Shown piece after piece: positions 2 to 10,650 of a DNA stretch of 10,650 bases (the stretch's first letter is position 1; every line of letters begins with the position of its first letter). The position numbers were made by a program, and so were the translations under genes. This DNA is from Pseudobdellovibrionaceae bacterium. GTDB taxonomy: Bacteria > Bdellovibrionota > Bdellovibrionia > Bdellovibrionales > Bdellovibrionaceae. The stretch is taken from contig JBIKLL010000085.1 in the NCBI GenBank assembly GCA_044359815.1, positions 1 to 10,650 on the forward strand. The letters are read 5' to 3'. The notes below the pieces were generated by a model. That model did no database searches. It saw nothing but the letters and a program-made list of their open reading frames with translations, and was not told the DNA's origin.

Positions 2-3000
2 GAGGCTGACATTGCGATTGCAGCGTCACAAATTTCTAGCGGCACATTGCCGATTGCTCGCGGTGGTACAAATTCTGCGACAGCATTAAGTAACAACAGA
101 TTAATGGTATCAAACGGTGGAGCGATTGTTGAAGCCGGTGCAATGACCAACGGACAAATGATGGTCGGTGTGACAGGCAGTGCTCCTGCGATTGTATCAA
201 TGAGCGGTGATGCTACATTGGCATCAGGTGGTGCTTTAACATTAGCAAGCACTGGTGTGACAGCAGCGGCGTATGGATCAGTATCAGCAGTGCCTTCATT
301 TACAGTGGATGCAAAAGGTCGTTTAACTGCGGCTGGCTCAGCGGCTTATCAAGACGCTAGCTATGCAGCAAAAGGTATCGTGCAACTGGATACAAATGCA
401 GCGACTTCTGGATTAACAGTTTCAAGCGGAACAATTAAATTGGCAAACAGTGGTGTAACTGCAGCAAGCTATGGAACCACAGCTGCCAAAACAGTTTCAT
501 TAACTGTGGATGCATTTGGACGAATCACTACAGCAGCAGAAGCTGACATTGCAATCGCGGCTTCACAAATCACTAGCGGAACATTGGGAATTTCTCGAGG
601 CGGTACGGGAGCTTCGGCATTAACAGCTAATCGAATGATCATGATGAACGGTACAGGAACTGCGATGATCGTAGATGCTTGCGCAACCGGAGAAGTGTTG
701 CAGTTCAGTGGCACGACTTGGGGTTGCGTTGCGGGAACTTCATTGGGTAGCGGTGGCAGTGGTGACATCACAGATGTGACTGCAGGAACTGGTTTAACTG
801 GTGGAGCCGCAAGTGGCAATGCTACATTGTCATTAGCTGACACTGCAGTAAGTGCAGCTAGCTATGGATCAGCATCAGCAGTGCCTTCATTCACAGTAGA
901 TGCAAAAGGTCGTTTAACAGCAGCTGGTTCAGCAGCTTATCAAAACGCCAGCTATGCAGCTAAAGGTATAGTTCAATTAGATACAGATGCAGCGACATCT
1001 GGATTAACAGTAACGAGCGGCACAGTGAAATTAGCAAACAGCGGTGTGACTGCTGGGAGCTTCGGAACCACAGCTGCAAAAGCAGTTTCGTTAACAGTGG
1101 ATGCATTTGGTCGAATCACAGCGGCCTCACAAGCTGACATCGCGATTGCAGCGTCACAAGTTACAAGCGGTACATTGGGATTCAGCCGTGGTGGTACAGG
1201 ATCATCATCATTTACCGCAAATCGAATGGTTATGGTCAATGGAACAAATACTGGATTGATAAACGATACTTGCTCAACCGGAGAAGTTCTTCAGTTTAAT
1301 GGAACCACATGGGCTTGTGTTGCGGGATCTTCAATGGGTGCCGGTGGTGACATCACAGCAGTTACGACTAGTGCAAGCTTGACAGGTGGGGCAACTACGG
1401 GAGCCGTGTCTTTGGATTTATCATCAACAGGTGTGACAGCAGCTGCGTATGGTTCAACCTCAGCAGTGCCTTCATTTACAGTGGATGCTCAAGGTCGTTT
1501 ATCTGCGGCCAGTTCAGCAGCTTATCAAAACGCCAGTTATGCAGCAAAAGGTATAGTTCAATTGGATACAGATGCAGCGACATCTGGATTAACAGTTTCA
1601 AGCGGTACAATTAAATTAGCAAACAGCGGTGCCACAGCCGGAACTTATAAATCTGTGACTGTAGATGCTTTTGGCCGTGTGACTGGTGGAACAAATCCGA
1701 CGACTCTTTCTGGCTATGGAATCACTGATGCTGCTACATTGGGTGGAAACTCTGGTGCAGTTACAATTGGATCAAACGACAATGCTTTATATCTGGAAGC
1801 TAATAATTCAACTGTTGTGACAATTGATACTTCAGGCAACATGGGTGTGGGCGGTGCTGCAGATGCTGGGAAATTCAAAGTTACCAGAACTTACAGTTCA
1901 GCTACAGCAGGCGAACAATATGGTATCTATGGTGTCACTAACTATTCAGCTGCAGATACTTCGTATAAAGTGGGCGCAAGACTTAATACGGCAGCGACTC
2001 ACACAACGGGCACTATTGCTAATTTAGTTGGTATGATGTCATTAAACACAGGATCTGGAAATGGTGGAACAACCACTAATATCCATGGTAATTGGAGTCG
2101 AGTCGACGTATCAACAGGTCACACAGTATCAAGCGCTGTCAGTTATTACGCTGCCAACGGTTCGGGTGCTGGAACCATGTCTAATCAAGTAGGGTTGTAC
2201 GTTGAAAGCTTAACCAAAGGTACAACCAATTACTCGGTCTATACTGCTGGAACAACACCGTCGTTTTTTGGTGGTAATGTTGGTGTCGGAACGACGTCTG
2301 CAGGTGGAGCACTAGATATCAACTCTGCAACGGGTGCAAATTTACGATTAACTTATAATGATGCCGATGGATCCGCTGTTAACTATGCTGATTTTTCAAC
2401 AACCAGTGGTGGTGATTTAACAATTTCACCAAGCGGTGGTGACACGACTTTGAGTGGTTCATTAACTATCAGCACAGCTGGAAAATATTTGGTTTATTCA
2501 CCGAACGCAGTTGCTTGTACAAATGGCAACGTTTTGACAAAAACAGCCAATGGTTGGGAATGCGGAACAGCAGCCACTGGCACCATCACAGTTGTGACAG
2601 CAGGTACTGGATTAACTGGCGGTGGATCATCGGGCAACGTAACATTGTCATTAGCAAACACGTCTGTATCAGCAGCGGCGTATGGATCGACTTCAGCGGT
2701 GCCTTCATTCACAGTGGATGCTCAAGGTCGTTTAACGGCGGCATCAAGTGCGGCTTATCAAAATGCTTCTTACAGTGCTAAAGGTATTGTGCAACTTGAT
2801 ACTGATGCTGCGACTTCGGGATTAACAGTAACAAGTGGAACTATTAAATTGGCAAACAGCGGAGCCACTGCTGGAACATATAAATCAGTAACAGTGGATG
2901 CTTTTGGTCGAGTGACTGGTGGAACTAATCCAACGACTCTTGCTGGATACGGAATCACAGATGCTGGTGATATCACTGATGTGTCACCTGGTACTGGCTT

Positions 3001-4039
3001 AACTGGTGGTGGTTCATCTGGTAACGTGACTTTAAATGTGAACTGGGCATCGCCTGGATCAATCGGTTCTTCAACAGCTGCGGCGGGTGCATTCACGACT
3101 CTGTCGTCTTCAGGAACCTACACTGCAACTGGAAACATCACTCAAACTGGATCAACAACATTTGGCACAGGCACTGGTGCTGTCAGTCTGAATGGTGACA
3201 CAACCATCGCTGCTGGAAGAAACTTTGTGATGTCTTCAGGTGCGGGAACTCATGTTCAAACCTACACAGGAACAACTACAGACGCGGCACAAATCACAGC
3301 CAACAGCGTGACTACAGCTGATGTGTTGCAATTAACTGGTAATGGATTAACCAGCGGTAATATTTTAAATATTTCTTCTACCTCGACAGCTGCTGCCGCA
3401 GGCAATACAGGAGTTAACATTGCAATCAGCGGAGCTAACGGCACTTCAACAATTACCAGAACAGGTATCAGCTCTGCCGTGACTGCAACAGGAACTGCAT
3501 CAACAAATATTGCAGCAAGCTTTAGCGCTTCTGGTGGAACAAATAATTACGGATTATTGGTGACAAATGGTAACGTTGGTATCGGCGCGTCGACACCTAC
3601 TGAAAAATTAGAAGTTAGTGGTAACGTGAAAGCCACAAATTTTATTTCAACTTCGGATAGAAGGCTTAAGGAAAATATTCAGCCGACTAAAGGTTTGGAA
3701 GTTATTAATCAATTAACGGGTGTAAGTTGGGATTGGAAATCCAATCATCAACCAGATGCCGGTGTGATCGCTCAAGATCTTGAAAAAGTAATTCCAAGTG
3801 CTGTTGTGACCAATGAAGAAACAGGACTTAAGGCTGTAAAATACAACACGTTAGTGGCTCCATTAATTCAAGCCGTTAAAGAGCTTTATGTCATGATCAA
3901 AAATAATCTTATCCAAGATCAAGCACAAGATTCAGCTATTGCAGCACTTCAAAAAGACAATGAAAAGCTTAAGTCTGAAAATGAGAAGCTGAAAAAAGAT
4001 ATGGAAATGATTAAATCAAGACTTGGCTTACAAGACTAA
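2..4039 (+). CDS. 5'-truncated phage-tail-fibre-like trimeric adhesin with C-terminal peptidase S74 (intramolecular chaperone) domain and coiled coil; resembles Bdellovibrio mosaic adhesive trimer fibres
   Basis: The frame is open from position 2 (EADIAIAASQISSGTLPIARGG, itself a copy of an internal repeat), so TTG 47 is not the real start. Gly/Ser/Thr/Ala-rich. Tail-fibre motifs: KGIVQL x4, VTVDAFGRVTGGTNPTTLxGYGITDA x2, GN[MV]G[VI]G x3. S74 signature TSDRRLKENI at 3650-3679, followed by GVIAQDLEKVIP and LVAPLIQAVKEL and a heptad tail. Stop TAA 4037-4039. Confidence 0.92.
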   Translation, partial: EADIAIAASQISSGTLPIARGGTNSATALSNNRLMVSNGGAIVEAGAMTNGQMMVGVTGSAPAIVSMSGDATLASGGALTLASTGVTAAAYGSVSAVPSFTVDAKGRLTAAGSAAYQDASYAAKGIVQLDTNAATSGLTVSSGTIKLANSGVTAASYGTTAAKTVSLTVDAFGRITTAAEADIAIAASQITSGTLGISRGGTGASALTANRMIMMNGTGTAMIVDACATGEVLQFSGTTWGCVAGTSLGSGGSGDITDVTAGTGLTGGAASGNATLSLADTAVSAASYGSASAVPSFTVDAKGRLTAAGSAAYQNASYAAKGIVQLDTDAATSGLTVTSGTVKLANSGVTAGSFGTTAAKAVSLTVDAFGRITAASQADIAIAASQVTSGTLGFSRGGTGSSSFTANRMVMVNGTNTGLINDTCSTGEVLQFNGTTWACVAGSSMGAGGDITAVTTSASLTGGATTGAVSLDLSSTGVTAAAYGSTSAVPSFTVDAQGRLSAASSAAYQNASYAAKGIVQLDTDAATSGLTVSSGTIKLANSGATAGTYKSVTVDAFGRVTGGTNPTTLSGYGITDAATLGGNSGAVTIGSNDNALYLEANNSTVVTIDTSGNMGVGGAADAGKFKVTRTYSSATAGEQYGIYGVTNYSAADTSYKVGARLNTAATHTTGTIANLVGMMSLNTGSGNGGTTTNIHGNWSRVDVSTGHTVSSAVSYYAANGSGAGTMSNQVGLYVESLTKGTTNYSVYTAGTTPSFFGGNVGVGTTSAGGALDINSATGANLRLTYNDADGSAVNYADFSTTSGGDLTISPSGGDTTLSGSLTISTAGKYLVYSPNAVACTNGNVLTKTANGWECGTAATGTITVVTAGTGLTGGGSSGNVTLSLANTSVSAAAYGSTSAVPSFTVDAQGRLTAASSAAYQNASYSAKGIVQLDTDAATSGLTVTSGTIKLANSGATAGTYKSVTVDAFGRVTGGTNPTTLAGYGITDAGDITDVSPGTGLTGGGSSGNVTLNVNWASPGSIGSSTAAAGAFTTLSSSGTYTATGNITQTGSTTFGTGTGAVSLNGDTTIAAGRNFVMSSGAGTHVQTYTGTTTDAAQITANSVTTADVLQLTGNGLTSGNILNISSTSTAAAAGNTGVNIAISGANGTSTITRTGISSAVTATGTASTNIAASFSASGGTNNYGLLVTNGNVGIGASTPTEKLEVSGNVKATNFISTSDRRLKENIQPTKGLEVINQLTGVSWDWKSNHQPDAGVIAQDLEKVIPSAVVTNEETGLKAVKYNTLVAPLIQAVKELYVMIKNNLIQDQAQDSAIAALQKDNEKLKSENEKLKKDMEMIKSRLGLQD
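248..2966 (+). repeat. Intragenic coding repeats of the fibre gene (four copies of a ~70-aa module plus smaller modules)
   Basis: The VPSFTVDAxGRL...KGIVQLDT...GLTVxSGTxKLANSG module has its VP codons at 290, 881, 1466 and 2699 (offsets 591, 585, 1233 nt). ASQxxSGTLxxxRGGT at 23, 560, 1151. PTTLxGYGITDA at 1697 and 2930. Paired-Cys turns start at 680, 1271, 2516. Confidence 0.95.
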
Positions 4040-8985: not shown

Positions 8986-9018
8986 TTGTTACAGTCCGAA
9001 TTGTTTCGGGAGATAACA

Positions 9019-10299
9019 ATGCACGTAGGTTCGAAACACATTTTTTTAGCTTTATATACAGCTGTTGCCATTGGATTCAATGGATCGGTTGCTTATGCTA
9101 AATCAGTGAATTTAAGCTCAAGCTGCACTTCAACAGATGGTAAAACCATCAAAGGGCTACGTACTGAAACGCTGTATCCCATCGCCAGTGTATCAAAAAT
9201 CTTTACTTCTTATTGGGCTCTTAAAACTTACGGAGTGGATCATCGCTTTATCACGAAAGTGCATTTAGCCAAAGTCGAAGGCGAATGGCAGGCTCACATC
9301 GAGGGCAGTTATGATCCCTATTTTTCAAAAAAGAGCATTCAGTATTTAGCAGCGACCCTAAATAAAAAAGGCATTTATAAATTATCCAGACTAACCTTTG
9401 ACGGTCGAGTTTTCTTGGCTTTAAATATTACTGACTCTGAGTTGATCAGCGACACCTATGAAAACACTCACCCATCGCGAGTAAAAACCGGCGACAATCT
9501 GGTTCAGATTTTCACGCGCTTAAACAGAGGCTATGAAACCCTCAGAAGCCAGGTCGAACAAGCTCATGGCGAACTGCTGCCAGACACTATCAATTTAACT
9601 GTAGAAGAAATTGCTTACTTAAACGCAAATTCGTTTAAACCCAAGGGTAAGACTGTGGTGTTGCTTCCGTCAGTCCCACTGATTGGTATGATCAAATACA
9701 TGAACACTCACAGTCATAACTATTTGTCTGAAGCTTTGTATCAAGGGTTAGGCAATGGCTCTGATCTGGAAAACTTTCTGCACAGTGAATTGGGTATTTC
9801 GGTGGCTGACATCAGCTTTTTGAATGGATCTGGCAATAATGATGGTGAAAACCGCTACACCAGAGCCAACTGCAAATCGATTATTAAAACAATTTATGCC
9901 CTTAGGAAGCTTATGATCGAAAGTGGCAAAAAATCCTATCATGCCATGGGTGTCGTTGATGTGGACCTAGAAACTGGAAAAGGGTATCGCAGTGAATACA
10001 CCAGTGATTCAGTGGTTGCTAAAACTGGAACGGTTGCAAAGGCCGTGACATTAGCGGGAATTGCTTCGACCCAACAGGGAAACGTTTATTTTGCTTTTAT
10101 CTATAAAACACCTAGCATCGCTTATGCAGGGCAAGCTCGCAGAGCTATCAAAGAGGATTTGATCGAACTGATCGATCAGCATGGTGGGCCAGAAAAAATG
10201 GATTCCAATTCGCCTGAAGGCTATGATCCCTTTGACAGAAAAAATGTCGTGATCATCACTCAAGAAAATCTGGATTCAGTTCCTCTTAGACAAAACTAG
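9019..10299 (+). CDS. dacB: Secreted D-Ala-D-Ala carboxypeptidase/endopeptidase, peptidase S13 (PBP4/DacB-like); resembles the predatory Bd0816/Bd3459 type
   Basis: GGGAGA RBS before ATG 9019 (preferred over TTG 8986). Signal peptide ending in AYA|K. SxxK in PIASVSK (9187-9198), HRFIT, GSYDP, SxN as SHN (9712-9720), NGSG, KTG (10021-10029). 426 aa. Confidence 0.92.
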   Translation: MHVGSKHIFLALYTAVAIGFNGSVAYAKSVNLSSSCTSTDGKTIKGLRTETLYPIASVSKIFTSYWALKTYGVDHRFITKVHLAKVEGEWQAHIEGSYDPYFSKKSIQYLAATLNKKGIYKLSRLTFDGRVFLALNITDSELISDTYENTHPSRVKTGDNLVQIFTRLNRGYETLRSQVEQAHGELLPDTINLTVEEIAYLNANSFKPKGKTVVLLPSVPLIGMIKYMNTHSHNYLSEALYQGLGNGSDLENFLHSELGISVADISFLNGSGNNDGENRYTRANCKSIIKTIYALRKLMIESGKKSYHAMGVVDVDLETGKGYRSEYTSDSVVAKTGTVAKAVTLAGIASTQQGNVYFAFIYKTPSIAYAGQARRAIKEDLIELIDQHGGPEKMDSNSPEGYDPFDRKNVVIITQENLDSVPLRQN

Positions 10300-10341
10300 A
10301 GCCGGCCCACTTGAGTGCGGTTAATTTGAGTCTAAAAATAC

Positions 10342-10650
10342 TTCAATGTTTTTACACCTTTTGAATACTTGCTAACGGCCGCAAGCTCATCTCTCGTATT
10401 GCGTAAATGCAAAAGTAATTTGTTTTTACTGTTTTTAGACACATGCAGCGAGCGTGCGGGGCATATCTGGTGTTGAGTCATTTTATAAAAGCAAAAAAAT
10501 TGCTTTTATAAAATGATTCAATACGAGAGATGAGCCCGCGGCCGTTAGCGAGTGTCTAAAAATAGTGAAAAAAATTATCTTTGCATTTACGCATCACGAG
10601 ATATGCCATGCGCGCTCGCAAATGTATTCAAAAGGTGTAAAAACATAGAA
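10342..10650. repeat. Composite inverted-repeat element A-B-C-D-E-E'-B'-C'-D'-A', probably truncated by the window end
   Basis: Hand alignment of each segment to the reverse complement of its partner: A 10342-10368 / A' 10624-10650 (26/27); B 10369-10401 / B' 10519-10551 (30/33); C 10400-10442 / C' 10552-10593 (38/43, one gap); D 10448-10475 / D' 10592-10619 (23/28); E 10473-10494 / E' 10500-10521 (21/22, A5 loop). Confidence 0.93.

Follow-up and report, generated by a model that had tools for sequence, protein, structure and literature searches.

Why should five inverted-repeat pairs stand in the order A-B-C-D-E-E'-B'-C'-D'-A', some nested and others crossed, and does such an order call for a special fold? 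The question is raised by positions 10342..10650, at the end of the 10,650-nucleotide stretch of DNA analysed here (the window, which is the complete contig C108, G000:C108:1-10650), where an earlier note had described this arrangement and had held that a single inverted duplication is unable to give it. Both statements are right, and repeat finding on the window sequence recovers the arms. Nested about a common centre at ~10497 are the pair 10342-10368/10624-10650 (27 nt, 96%) and the pairs 10388-10425/10568-10605, 10412-10442/10552-10582 and 10462-10494/10500-10532. Crossing these are the pairs 10349-10401/10519-10571 (53 nt, 81%, centre 10460) and 10448-10478/10589-10619 (31 nt, 81%, centre 10533.5), whose centres are offset by 37 nt to either side of the main centre, half of a 74-nt period that is also visible as a direct repeat (10347-10372 versus 10421-10446). 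As a single strand the stretch is predicted to form a rod, with a folding energy of -167.7 kcal/mol for plus-strand RNA against -70.6 ± 4.8 for 100 shuffled sequences (z = -20, with none of the shuffles equal to it) and of -143.4 kcal/mol (z = -16.8) for the minus strand.

Alignment of the quarters of this stretch, two of them reverse-complemented, resolves it into four homologous units of ~74 nt, in each of which an AT-rich head is followed by a GC-rich core of 33 nt and by a tail. The core is of one of two types: type a, in units 1 and 3, contains the 12-mer GCTAACGGCCGC, and type b, in units 2 and 4, contains GCGAGCGYGC, the strand order in the window being a, b, a', b'. Heads and tails pair in nested fashion (unit 1 with unit 4, unit 2 with unit 3), and the GC-rich cores match crosswise. 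The cores are weakly self-complementary, with local stems of 4-5 bp as read by eye rather than by a formal test; inspection by eye likewise led us to reject core b as a reverse-complemented form of core a. The features at this end of the window are listed below, with the basis of each in brackets.

8986..10299, plus strand: upstream gene, 437 aa, D-Ala-D-Ala carboxypeptidase S13-like (open reading frame list; Pfam PF02113, E 3.9e-18).
10300..10347, no strand: left outer arm (terminal inverted repeat), consisting of AGCC of the ARCT type (10300-10303), GGCCCAC (10304-10310) and an AT-rich arm (32-copy alignment, logo of 64 ends).
10348..10367, plus strand: head of unit 1, left arm of the outer element (unit alignment, nhmmer unit model).
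10368..10401, plus strand: core a of unit 1, segment B of the order given above, opposite the non-complementary b' at 10592-10624 (unit alignment; identity 0.94 among 32 copies).
10402..10420, plus strand: tail x, which forms the left-hand half of the stem at the centre of the outer element itself (set against the two-unit copy C5:4261-4396).
10421..10442, plus strand: head of unit 2, forming the left arm of the inverted inner element (no variation among 32 full copies at any of its 22 columns).
10443..10475, plus strand: core b of unit 2, segment D, opposite core a' at 10519-10552 (unit alignment, unit model).
10476..10518, no strand: central hairpin of the inner element, in its short 43-nt variant (hypervariable among copies, stems compensated).
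10519..10552, minus strand: core a of unit 3 in reverse, segment B' (repeat pairs, unit alignment).
10553..10571, minus strand: head of unit 3, right arm of the inner element (unit alignment).
10572..10591, minus strand: tail x', which forms the right-hand half of that same stem of the outer element (repeat pairs; comparison with the two-unit copy).
10592..10624, minus strand: core b of unit 4 in reverse, segment D' (repeat pairs, unit alignment).
10625..10644, minus strand: head of unit 4, right arm of the outer element (repeat pairs, unit alignment).
10645..10650, no strand: first 6 nt of the right outer arm, of which the remaining ~40-45 nt are absent.

The limits of the element, earlier placed at 10342 and 10650, have to be redrawn on the left, and on the right they coincide with the place where the contig stops inside the element. 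The element starts at ~10300, directly 3' of the TAG stop codon at 10297-10299, and the left outer arm (10300..10347) falls outside the earlier coordinates; other copies align from window positions 10304-10306. An alignment of 32 complete copies reveals that the palindrome reaches ~45 nt past each outer head, and that full copies end in a GGCCCAC...GTGGGCC pair with a semi-conserved ARCT in front, as is also seen in the logo of 64 ends. The stop codon of the S13-like gene lies 5 nt ahead of this GGCCCAC motif. The right outer arm is incomplete because the contig ends at 10650, and window positions 10300-10650 probably represent the left ~350 nt of a composite copy of ~415 nt. No open reading frame of at least 50 aa lies inside 10300-10650, and a scan of 10000-10650 detected no tRNA or tmRNA. 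Small open reading frames in the conserved blocks were dropped on inspection by eye, having no ribosome-binding site and a length that is not kept between element forms.

The element had been presented as a singular object; it is one of 37 four-unit copies in a family dispersed through the genome of this lake bacterium. A blastn search of the source genome, as the earlier note had proposed, matches 116 places, and an nhmmer profile of the 74-nt unit, iterated once, identifies 265 units in 93 clusters, all copy counts being derived from a fragmented assembly (2.95 Mb, 125 contigs, 91% complete). The units are distributed over both strands (129 on one, 136 on the other), and the clusters occupy 21,809 bases, or 0.74% of the genome. 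By core type, 134 units are a, 109 are b and 22 are unclassified; by eye, the unclassified cores are a variant of b in which 13 nt have been inserted, these making a small hairpin of their own. For 38 of the 250 contig ends a cluster is no more than 150 nt away, so that the family ranks among the main causes of assembly fragmentation, and its true copy number is higher. We consider it likely that the family belongs with palindromic repeats of the MITE/REPIN/BIME kind, being non-coding, dispersed and specific to its lineage, with a nested, two-core build that is unusual.

An assembly or fold-back artefact at the contig end, which the earlier note had named as a refuter, can be weighed against the same counts. 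The window copy is cut by a contig end, and contig ends near such repeats are frequent; nevertheless, the 32 complete copies lie inside contigs between unique flanks, and one locus of a separate metagenome assembly (L028) is a four-unit copy that is complete and bordered on either side by unique sequence. The gene and the start of the element also recur without any difference in Logan contigs of two lake-water runs (X1 record 1, 9655-10380; X2 record 9, 9650-10379), one of which may be the source sample. An artefact is scarcely credible in the light of these copies. None of the contigs from four lake-water DNA runs reaches across the element; they break inside the a core, and no joint that skips the element is listed.

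The arrangement of units within clusters follows strict rules. Units on the plus strand are followed by units on the minus strand in 63 of the 93 clusters (two inverse units, forming a hairpin); the arrangement ++-- occurs in 37 clusters and +-+- is absent among the 93. The cores of the 37 four-unit clusters read abab (12), baba, its equivalent on the other strand (15), or the same pattern with an unclassified long-b core (10), and the orders aabb, bbaa, abba and baab were found in none of them. Facing each other in inverted pairs are a and b in 83 of 84 classified cases, a and a in 1 and b and b in 0, with 16 further pairs holding an unclassified core; neighbours in the same orientation are heterotypic in 91 of 92 classified cases.

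The basic element is displayed by the two-unit copies (n = 12), which consist of an outer arm, head, core a, variable central hairpin, b', head' and outer arm'. It is most likely a long imperfect palindrome whose arms carry different, non-pairing cores, a and b'. As these two cores are unable to pair, the basic element is polar and contains a conserved bubble when folded. Serving as a guide to how the four-unit form is built are four copies in which the units are spaced (C6:21038, C20:30360, C83:682 and C106:57249); in all four, an inner element with its own full arms lies between the halves of the outer central stem, in the opposite orientation. In the window, the compact four-unit copy has this layout too, but its inner arms are short. 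In central hairpins of the 65-nt type the loop, GATTAATAAATTATC, is asymmetric, and its orientation with respect to the a-to-b' polarity is constant, whether in a two-unit copy or in an inner element, with two exceptions (C13 and C93); the inner part is therefore a genuine basic element, reversed.

In all likelihood, then, the four-unit form consists of a basic element at whose centre a second one lies inverted, and insertion as the route to this nesting is suggested by the element anatomy. With a two-core palindrome nested in opposite orientation, like cores come to be complementary crosswise while heads and tails remain nested, and the crossed order requires no special folding. For the two-unit copies with a short, x-type centre (C5 and C110) the best reading is that they arose from four-unit copies by deletion and are not ancestral to them, and short direct repeats, TTTG and TTGCAT, are candidate endpoints of these deletions.

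The earlier note had attached to the crossed order the idea of alternative folds, or of pairing from loop to loop in a paranemic or kissing geometry. That such pairing, in cis or between molecules, is the selected function is very unlikely, even though like cores are complementary over ~30 nt, their isolated duplexes reach -51.6 and -45.1 kcal/mol (against -19.7 and -30.2 for facing cores), and all 37 four-unit copies are oriented so that the bubbles are complementary and not identical. Crossed pairs can be compared with nested pairs over the 32 full copies, a check of the kind the earlier note had itself proposed. Compensatory double changes occur in 42 of 45 outer-arm pairs (198 cells) and in 15 of 20 head pairs (50 cells), as against 0 of the 31 crossed a:a' pairs, 18 of which vary, and 3 of the 33 crossed b:b' pairs (three cells of 1056), 22 of which vary. 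A short variable block inside the cores covaries instead with the facing core (AAG in a with CAT in b', GGG with CCC). Energetically the rod is favoured: forcing the crossed a:a' helix would cost 34 kcal/mol in RNA and 17 kcal/mol in DNA, and forcing b:b' would cost 52 and 32 kcal/mol. In addition, each of the twelve two-unit copies has a single a/b' bubble, with no partner in cis.

The orientation rule itself may have an origin other than loop pairing. The composites may descend from as few as three lineages, which makes the 'always opposite' arrangement statistically weak (~1 in 8 by chance), or same-orientation forms, containing near-identical tandem units, may have been lost, perhaps by slippage.

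Within one copy, the left and right arms are near-identical over ~40 nt. Mean pairwise identity among the 32 copies is 0.55 in the outer arms, 0.75-0.77 in the outer heads, 0.94 in core a of unit 1, 1.00 in the inner head (0.99 in its right-arm partner), 0.96 in core b of unit 2, 0.68 in the centre, 0.975 in core a' of unit 3 and 0.85 in core b' of unit 4, where there is an indel variant. Conservation increases gradually from the ends to the centre, with no step, a profile that insertion explains no better than does gene conversion between copies.

The contrast between cores, at 0.94-0.975 identity, and more variable AT-rich spacers could also be that of a protein-binding array on double-stranded DNA, in which the cores would be sites 74 bp apart (~7 helical turns) on bendable AT-rich DNA with a role in nucleoid structure, as proposed for BIMEs. 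The 74-nt unit period is in keeping with this, and the available part of PMC2817692 reports BIMEs as binding sites for several proteins. Such an array is nonetheless an improbable account of the family, leaving unexplained both the covariation of the arms and the constant facing of a and b, and its 74-bp register is broken by the spaced composites and the two-unit copies.

A related strain shows which properties of the family persist. Nine loci are carried by one metagenome assembly, with flanks 89-97% identical to contigs of this genome, indicating a related strain. Eight of the nine are occupied in both strains and the ninth is undecidable owing to a contig end; these loci were fetched via the element itself, a biased sample in which empty sites could not appear. 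Five loci were compared in detail, and at two of them the interior is flipped. At L028 (C110 in this genome) the interior is flipped relative to identical arms and flanks, and the inner element is present in one strain and absent in the other; at L036 (C49:51692) a flipped interior is accompanied by a short versus a long centre. The outer arm and a core are the same at L034 (C6), where a compact interior corresponds to a spaced one, and L030 (C87) differs by an indel of a 13-nt segment of b'. At L033 (C113) the central stem has been replaced, with 69% identity versus 95-97% in the rest of the element and 89% in the flank. The positions of loci are stable, and their internal structure is dynamic.

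Beyond this strain, no relatives were detected in the collections searched. The element had no blastn matches in 40 related genomes; the a-core pattern, allowing up to 3 mismatches, had none in 300 other genomes of the order (129 in its own genome, 0 for the reversed control), and the exact pattern had none in a collection of species-representative genomes or in viral contigs. Neither was there a match among the plasmid and phage records searched. A search for related loci by means of the neighbouring protein yielded no relative either, and a protein atlas returned just one hydrolase family, widespread and of mixed phyla. All 24 Rfam matches are sub-threshold, the best scoring 54.5 bits against a gathering threshold of 245 (a plant miRNA hairpin model); the generic hairpin (miRNA) models and the weak CRISPR-repeat match returned at a permissive E-value are far under threshold and were rejected. 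A literature search found no description of a nested two-core palindromic family, which does not in itself show its absence in print.

Where the copies sit relative to genes points to transcription as a second possible role. Of the 54 internal loci, 37 are flanked by convergent, 14 by co-directional and 3 by divergent genes, whereas 426 (17%) of the 2561 adjacent gene pairs in the genome are convergent and 440 divergent, on a crude, ORF-based gene set (2686 ORFs, 89% coding). An inward-reading ORF ends within 400 nt of 45 of the 64 element ends examined, and in 32 of these 45 the GGCCCAC motif follows the stop codon at a distance of 3-22 nt. In the logo the upstream flank is A-rich and, mirroring this, the downstream flank T-rich. 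Inverted repeats in the flanks beyond the ends are also in excess (7.46 versus 5.74 ± 0.40 in shuffled pairs), and the palindrome often extends into the flank. A role as a bidirectional terminator is plausible from this genomic position.

In its strongest form, this reading makes RNA or transcription the main role: the family would be a giant bidirectional terminator or 3'-UTR stabiliser, with the cores as bubbles recognized by proteins or RNases and with mobility secondary or extinct. It gains from the placement of the loci and the stop codons, from the mirrored A-rich and T-rich flanks, from the lack of any other terminator-like site after the S13-like gene in the window and from the sharing of positions between strains with near-identical cores; REP elements have been proposed as 3'-UTR regulators in the available part of 10.64898/2026.03.23.713779. 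A scan for promoter and terminator consensus sequences, however, gave 0 promoter-like sites and no terminator-like site within the element, and the stem does not lead directly into a T-run. In tandem contexts the a-to-b polarity is independent of gene direction, with 7-8 of the 14 co-directional loci running with the genes and 6 against them (three rows have an unclassified first core). The earlier note had seen an excess of G-U-compatible pairs on the plus strand, and the count is roughly reproduced in the window copy (9 in the plus-strand fold, 4 in the minus-strand fold), yet this reflects few fixed positions: the variable arms hold 29 G:T, 34 T:G, 30 A:C and 24 C:A pairs, and are without strand bias. 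The convergent enrichment, moreover, would be equally expected from selection against harmful insertions or from targeting of terminator hairpins. We regard a main role in transcription as possible but doubtful.

The means by which the family spreads was approached through its ends and through candidate enzymes. For 13 end-pairs, the longest direct repeat in the flanks averages 5.85 nt against 5.59 ± 0.30 for shuffled flanks, with no fixed offset, the exact termini of the element being diffuse, since conservation declines gradually as far as about -14. A model of the ends detects 99 ends in the genome; the 28 facing end-pairs are all 185-434 nt apart, and no larger element with the ends of the family was found in this 91%-complete, 125-contig assembly. 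There is a sister family with the same ends and a different, asymmetric GC-rich centre of ~50 nt (C101:4325-4523, C104:16888-17072 and others). A single RAYT-like ORF (C8:9501-10160) scores 72.4 bits on NF047646, under the 80-bit cut-off, and is flanked by a different 26-nt inverted repeat, itself dispersed in pairs. None of the nine matches to PF01797 (Y1-type) in the genome has a family unit within 3 kb. Eight weak Y1-type ORFs of ~211 aa have microsatellite-like arrays nearby and are conserved for only ~100 nt past the ORF.

The family could be a mobile palindrome of an undescribed kind that leaves no target-site duplication, its cores acting as bubbles for an HUH or other single-strand recombinase and its copies being placed at hairpin apices, namely terminators of convergent genes and the centres of other copies. 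We think this unlikely; if true, it would mean palindromes nested like Russian dolls, in which complementary bubbles could lock two layers or two molecules together.

For the palindromic family of MITE/REPIN/BIME kind that we favour, the arms would be kept symmetrical by template switching during replication or by recombination between arms. The difference between a and b' has survived in 83 of 84 pairs and between strains, which argues for constraint: the two-core asymmetry seems to outlast symmetrisation. Owing to this persistence, the a/b' bubble would most likely be a recognition feature of the folded single strand for an enzyme that copies or converts the element, as in BIMEs, and the composites that alone persist would be those of opposite orientation, perhaps through loss of tandem units in the same orientation by slippage.

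An apparent structural riddle has thereby become an ordinary genome feature with a clear anatomy, one that explains assembly breaks at many contig ends. Worthy of attention are the strict two-core asymmetry amid symmetrised surroundings, the replaced central stems, the flipped interiors and the preference for convergent sites behind stop codons. With 265 units in a small genome, and related strains in many lake metagenomes, the family offers a good natural system for the study of how palindromic repeats are maintained, converted and tolerated, and could also reveal whether such elements act as bidirectional terminators.

Several known systems share parts of this design. Integron attC sites and the ends of IS200/IS605 elements are imperfect hairpins in which unpaired bases give strand identity; here there is no integrase or linked transposase, and sizes and sequences are unrelated. 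Bacterial MITEs (ERIC/RU, Correia-type) are similar in being non-coding, intergenic and multi-copy, with long terminal inverted repeats and a length of 185-434 nt, a comparison with named families made by features and not by sequence, and the sister family with the same ends and another interior adds to this likeness; unlike them, the family has no detected target-site duplication (13 end-pairs) and no parent insertion sequence with its ends was found.

To REPINs, which are REP doublets mobilised by RAYTs, the family is similar, as far as the available sources describe them, in its hairpin-forming inverted doublets, its many copies, its restriction to a lineage and the persistence of positions between related strains. 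Its copies are much longer, however (~280 to 430 nt), their halves carry different cores, and no linked single-copy RAYT was found, no family unit lying within 3 kb of the RAYT-like ORF. The REP/REPIN unit is a GC-rich imperfect palindrome of 20-40 nt, from which the cores of the family, inspected by eye, differ.

Template switching at quasipalindromes, a process and not a family of elements, fits three traits seen here: arms that are symmetric yet particular to each copy, interiors that are flipped, and flanks with an excess of inverted repeats. Template switching homogenises the arms of inverted repeats, inverts their spacers and can extend the arms, according to the available parts of PMC8604942, PMC8794818, PMC13100816 and PMC7202029; alone it should erase the difference between a and b', yet this difference is kept.

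The earlier note recognized no REP/BIME or ncRNA family in the element, which holds for its sequence, all Rfam matches being sub-threshold, and fails for its kind, the inverse pairing of two types being BIME-like. The family differs from BIMEs in its 74-nt units with AT-rich heads and tails, in its 33-nt cores that are not themselves palindromes, in its nested ++-- units in place of a regular alternation in which heads meet heads and tails meet tails, and in having no sequence similarity and a RAYT-like gene that lies beside another repeat. In the available part of PMC3333891, E. coli BIMEs are defined by two different REP types (y with z1 or z2) in inverse orientation and are described as extragenic mosaics with variable linkers, whose copy number at a locus differs between strains, and binding of a single strand by the Y1 enzyme TnpA(REP) needs a mismatch in the stem. 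With BIMEs so described, the family shares two unit types that face each other (a/b in 83 of 84 pairs), variable centres, and differences between strains at fixed loci.

At the centre of a sister palindromic family in the same genome assembly is a GC-rich, non-palindromic stretch of about 50 nt, unlike the centre of the window's family. The terminal motif and the AT-rich arms are common to the two families, and the sister copies, about 185–200 nt long, lie at the following places (contig and position).

C101:4325-4523, sister-family copy
C104:16888-17072, sister-family copy
C109:15390, sister-family copy
C67:12101, sister-family copy
C124:61261, sister-family copy

As the same ends here enclose another GC-rich centre, an asymmetric GC core inside long perfect arms is a recurring design. 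Within the window's family, core b has a short and a long form, the latter with 13 additional nt that form a small hairpin with a GC stem. The two may replace each other between strains at one and the same locus, for example between C87:1544-1853 and the corresponding metagenome locus of a related strain, L030 (the reverse-oriented core, b', of many copies). At C56:2400-2631, beside one Y1-like ORF, lies an outer arm of the window's family, followed by heads joined in tandem to a third, different core, and core types other than a and b therefore exist.

Over the a core (window 10364-10397), the summed word depth in contigs of four lake-water DNA runs (X1, X2, X4 and X5) is ~170 to 800 times that of the neighbouring single-copy gene (depth about 3-5), a ratio exceeding the assembly's count of 129 a cores. 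Because these depths are sums over all compared contigs, including those of other organisms, the excess is at most a hint that family copies are under-assembled or common to other strains.

The start of the window is occupied by a large ORF.

Window 47-4039, plus strand, 1330-aa ORF with a Pfam match

Pfam matches it only in a C-terminal segment, residues 1203-1253 (E 2e-16), with Peptidase_S74, the 'chaperone of endosialidase' domain, which is known from phage tail fibres and from certain large surface proteins.

Eight mutually similar ORFs of ~211 aa in the assembly match Y1 transposases weakly (PF01797, about 22-25 bits; NF047646, 21 bits).

C23:186-821, Y1-like ORF
C48:48162-48797, Y1-like ORF
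C56:2966-3616, Y1-like ORF
C47:11949-12584, Y1-like ORF
C49:93316-93951, Y1-like ORF
C100:633-1268, Y1-like ORF
C125:2378-3013, Y1-like ORF
C8:23373-24140, Y1-like ORF

Conservation among the copies ends ~100 nt outside the ORF, and several adjoin long tandem arrays (repeat unit 4-8 nt) that vary between copies.

A RAYT-like ORF on C8 scores 72.4 bits against NF047646, below the cut-off of 80 bits.

C8:9501-10160 (locus L020:1237-1893), minus strand, RAYT-like ORF with NF047646 match

Flanking it on either side is an inverted 26-nt repeat with no relation to the window's palindromic family, and inverted pairs of this repeat occur on many contigs (C106, C49, C28, C32, C20, C116 and others). The ORF and its repeat look like a separate REP/REPIN–RAYT system within this genome.
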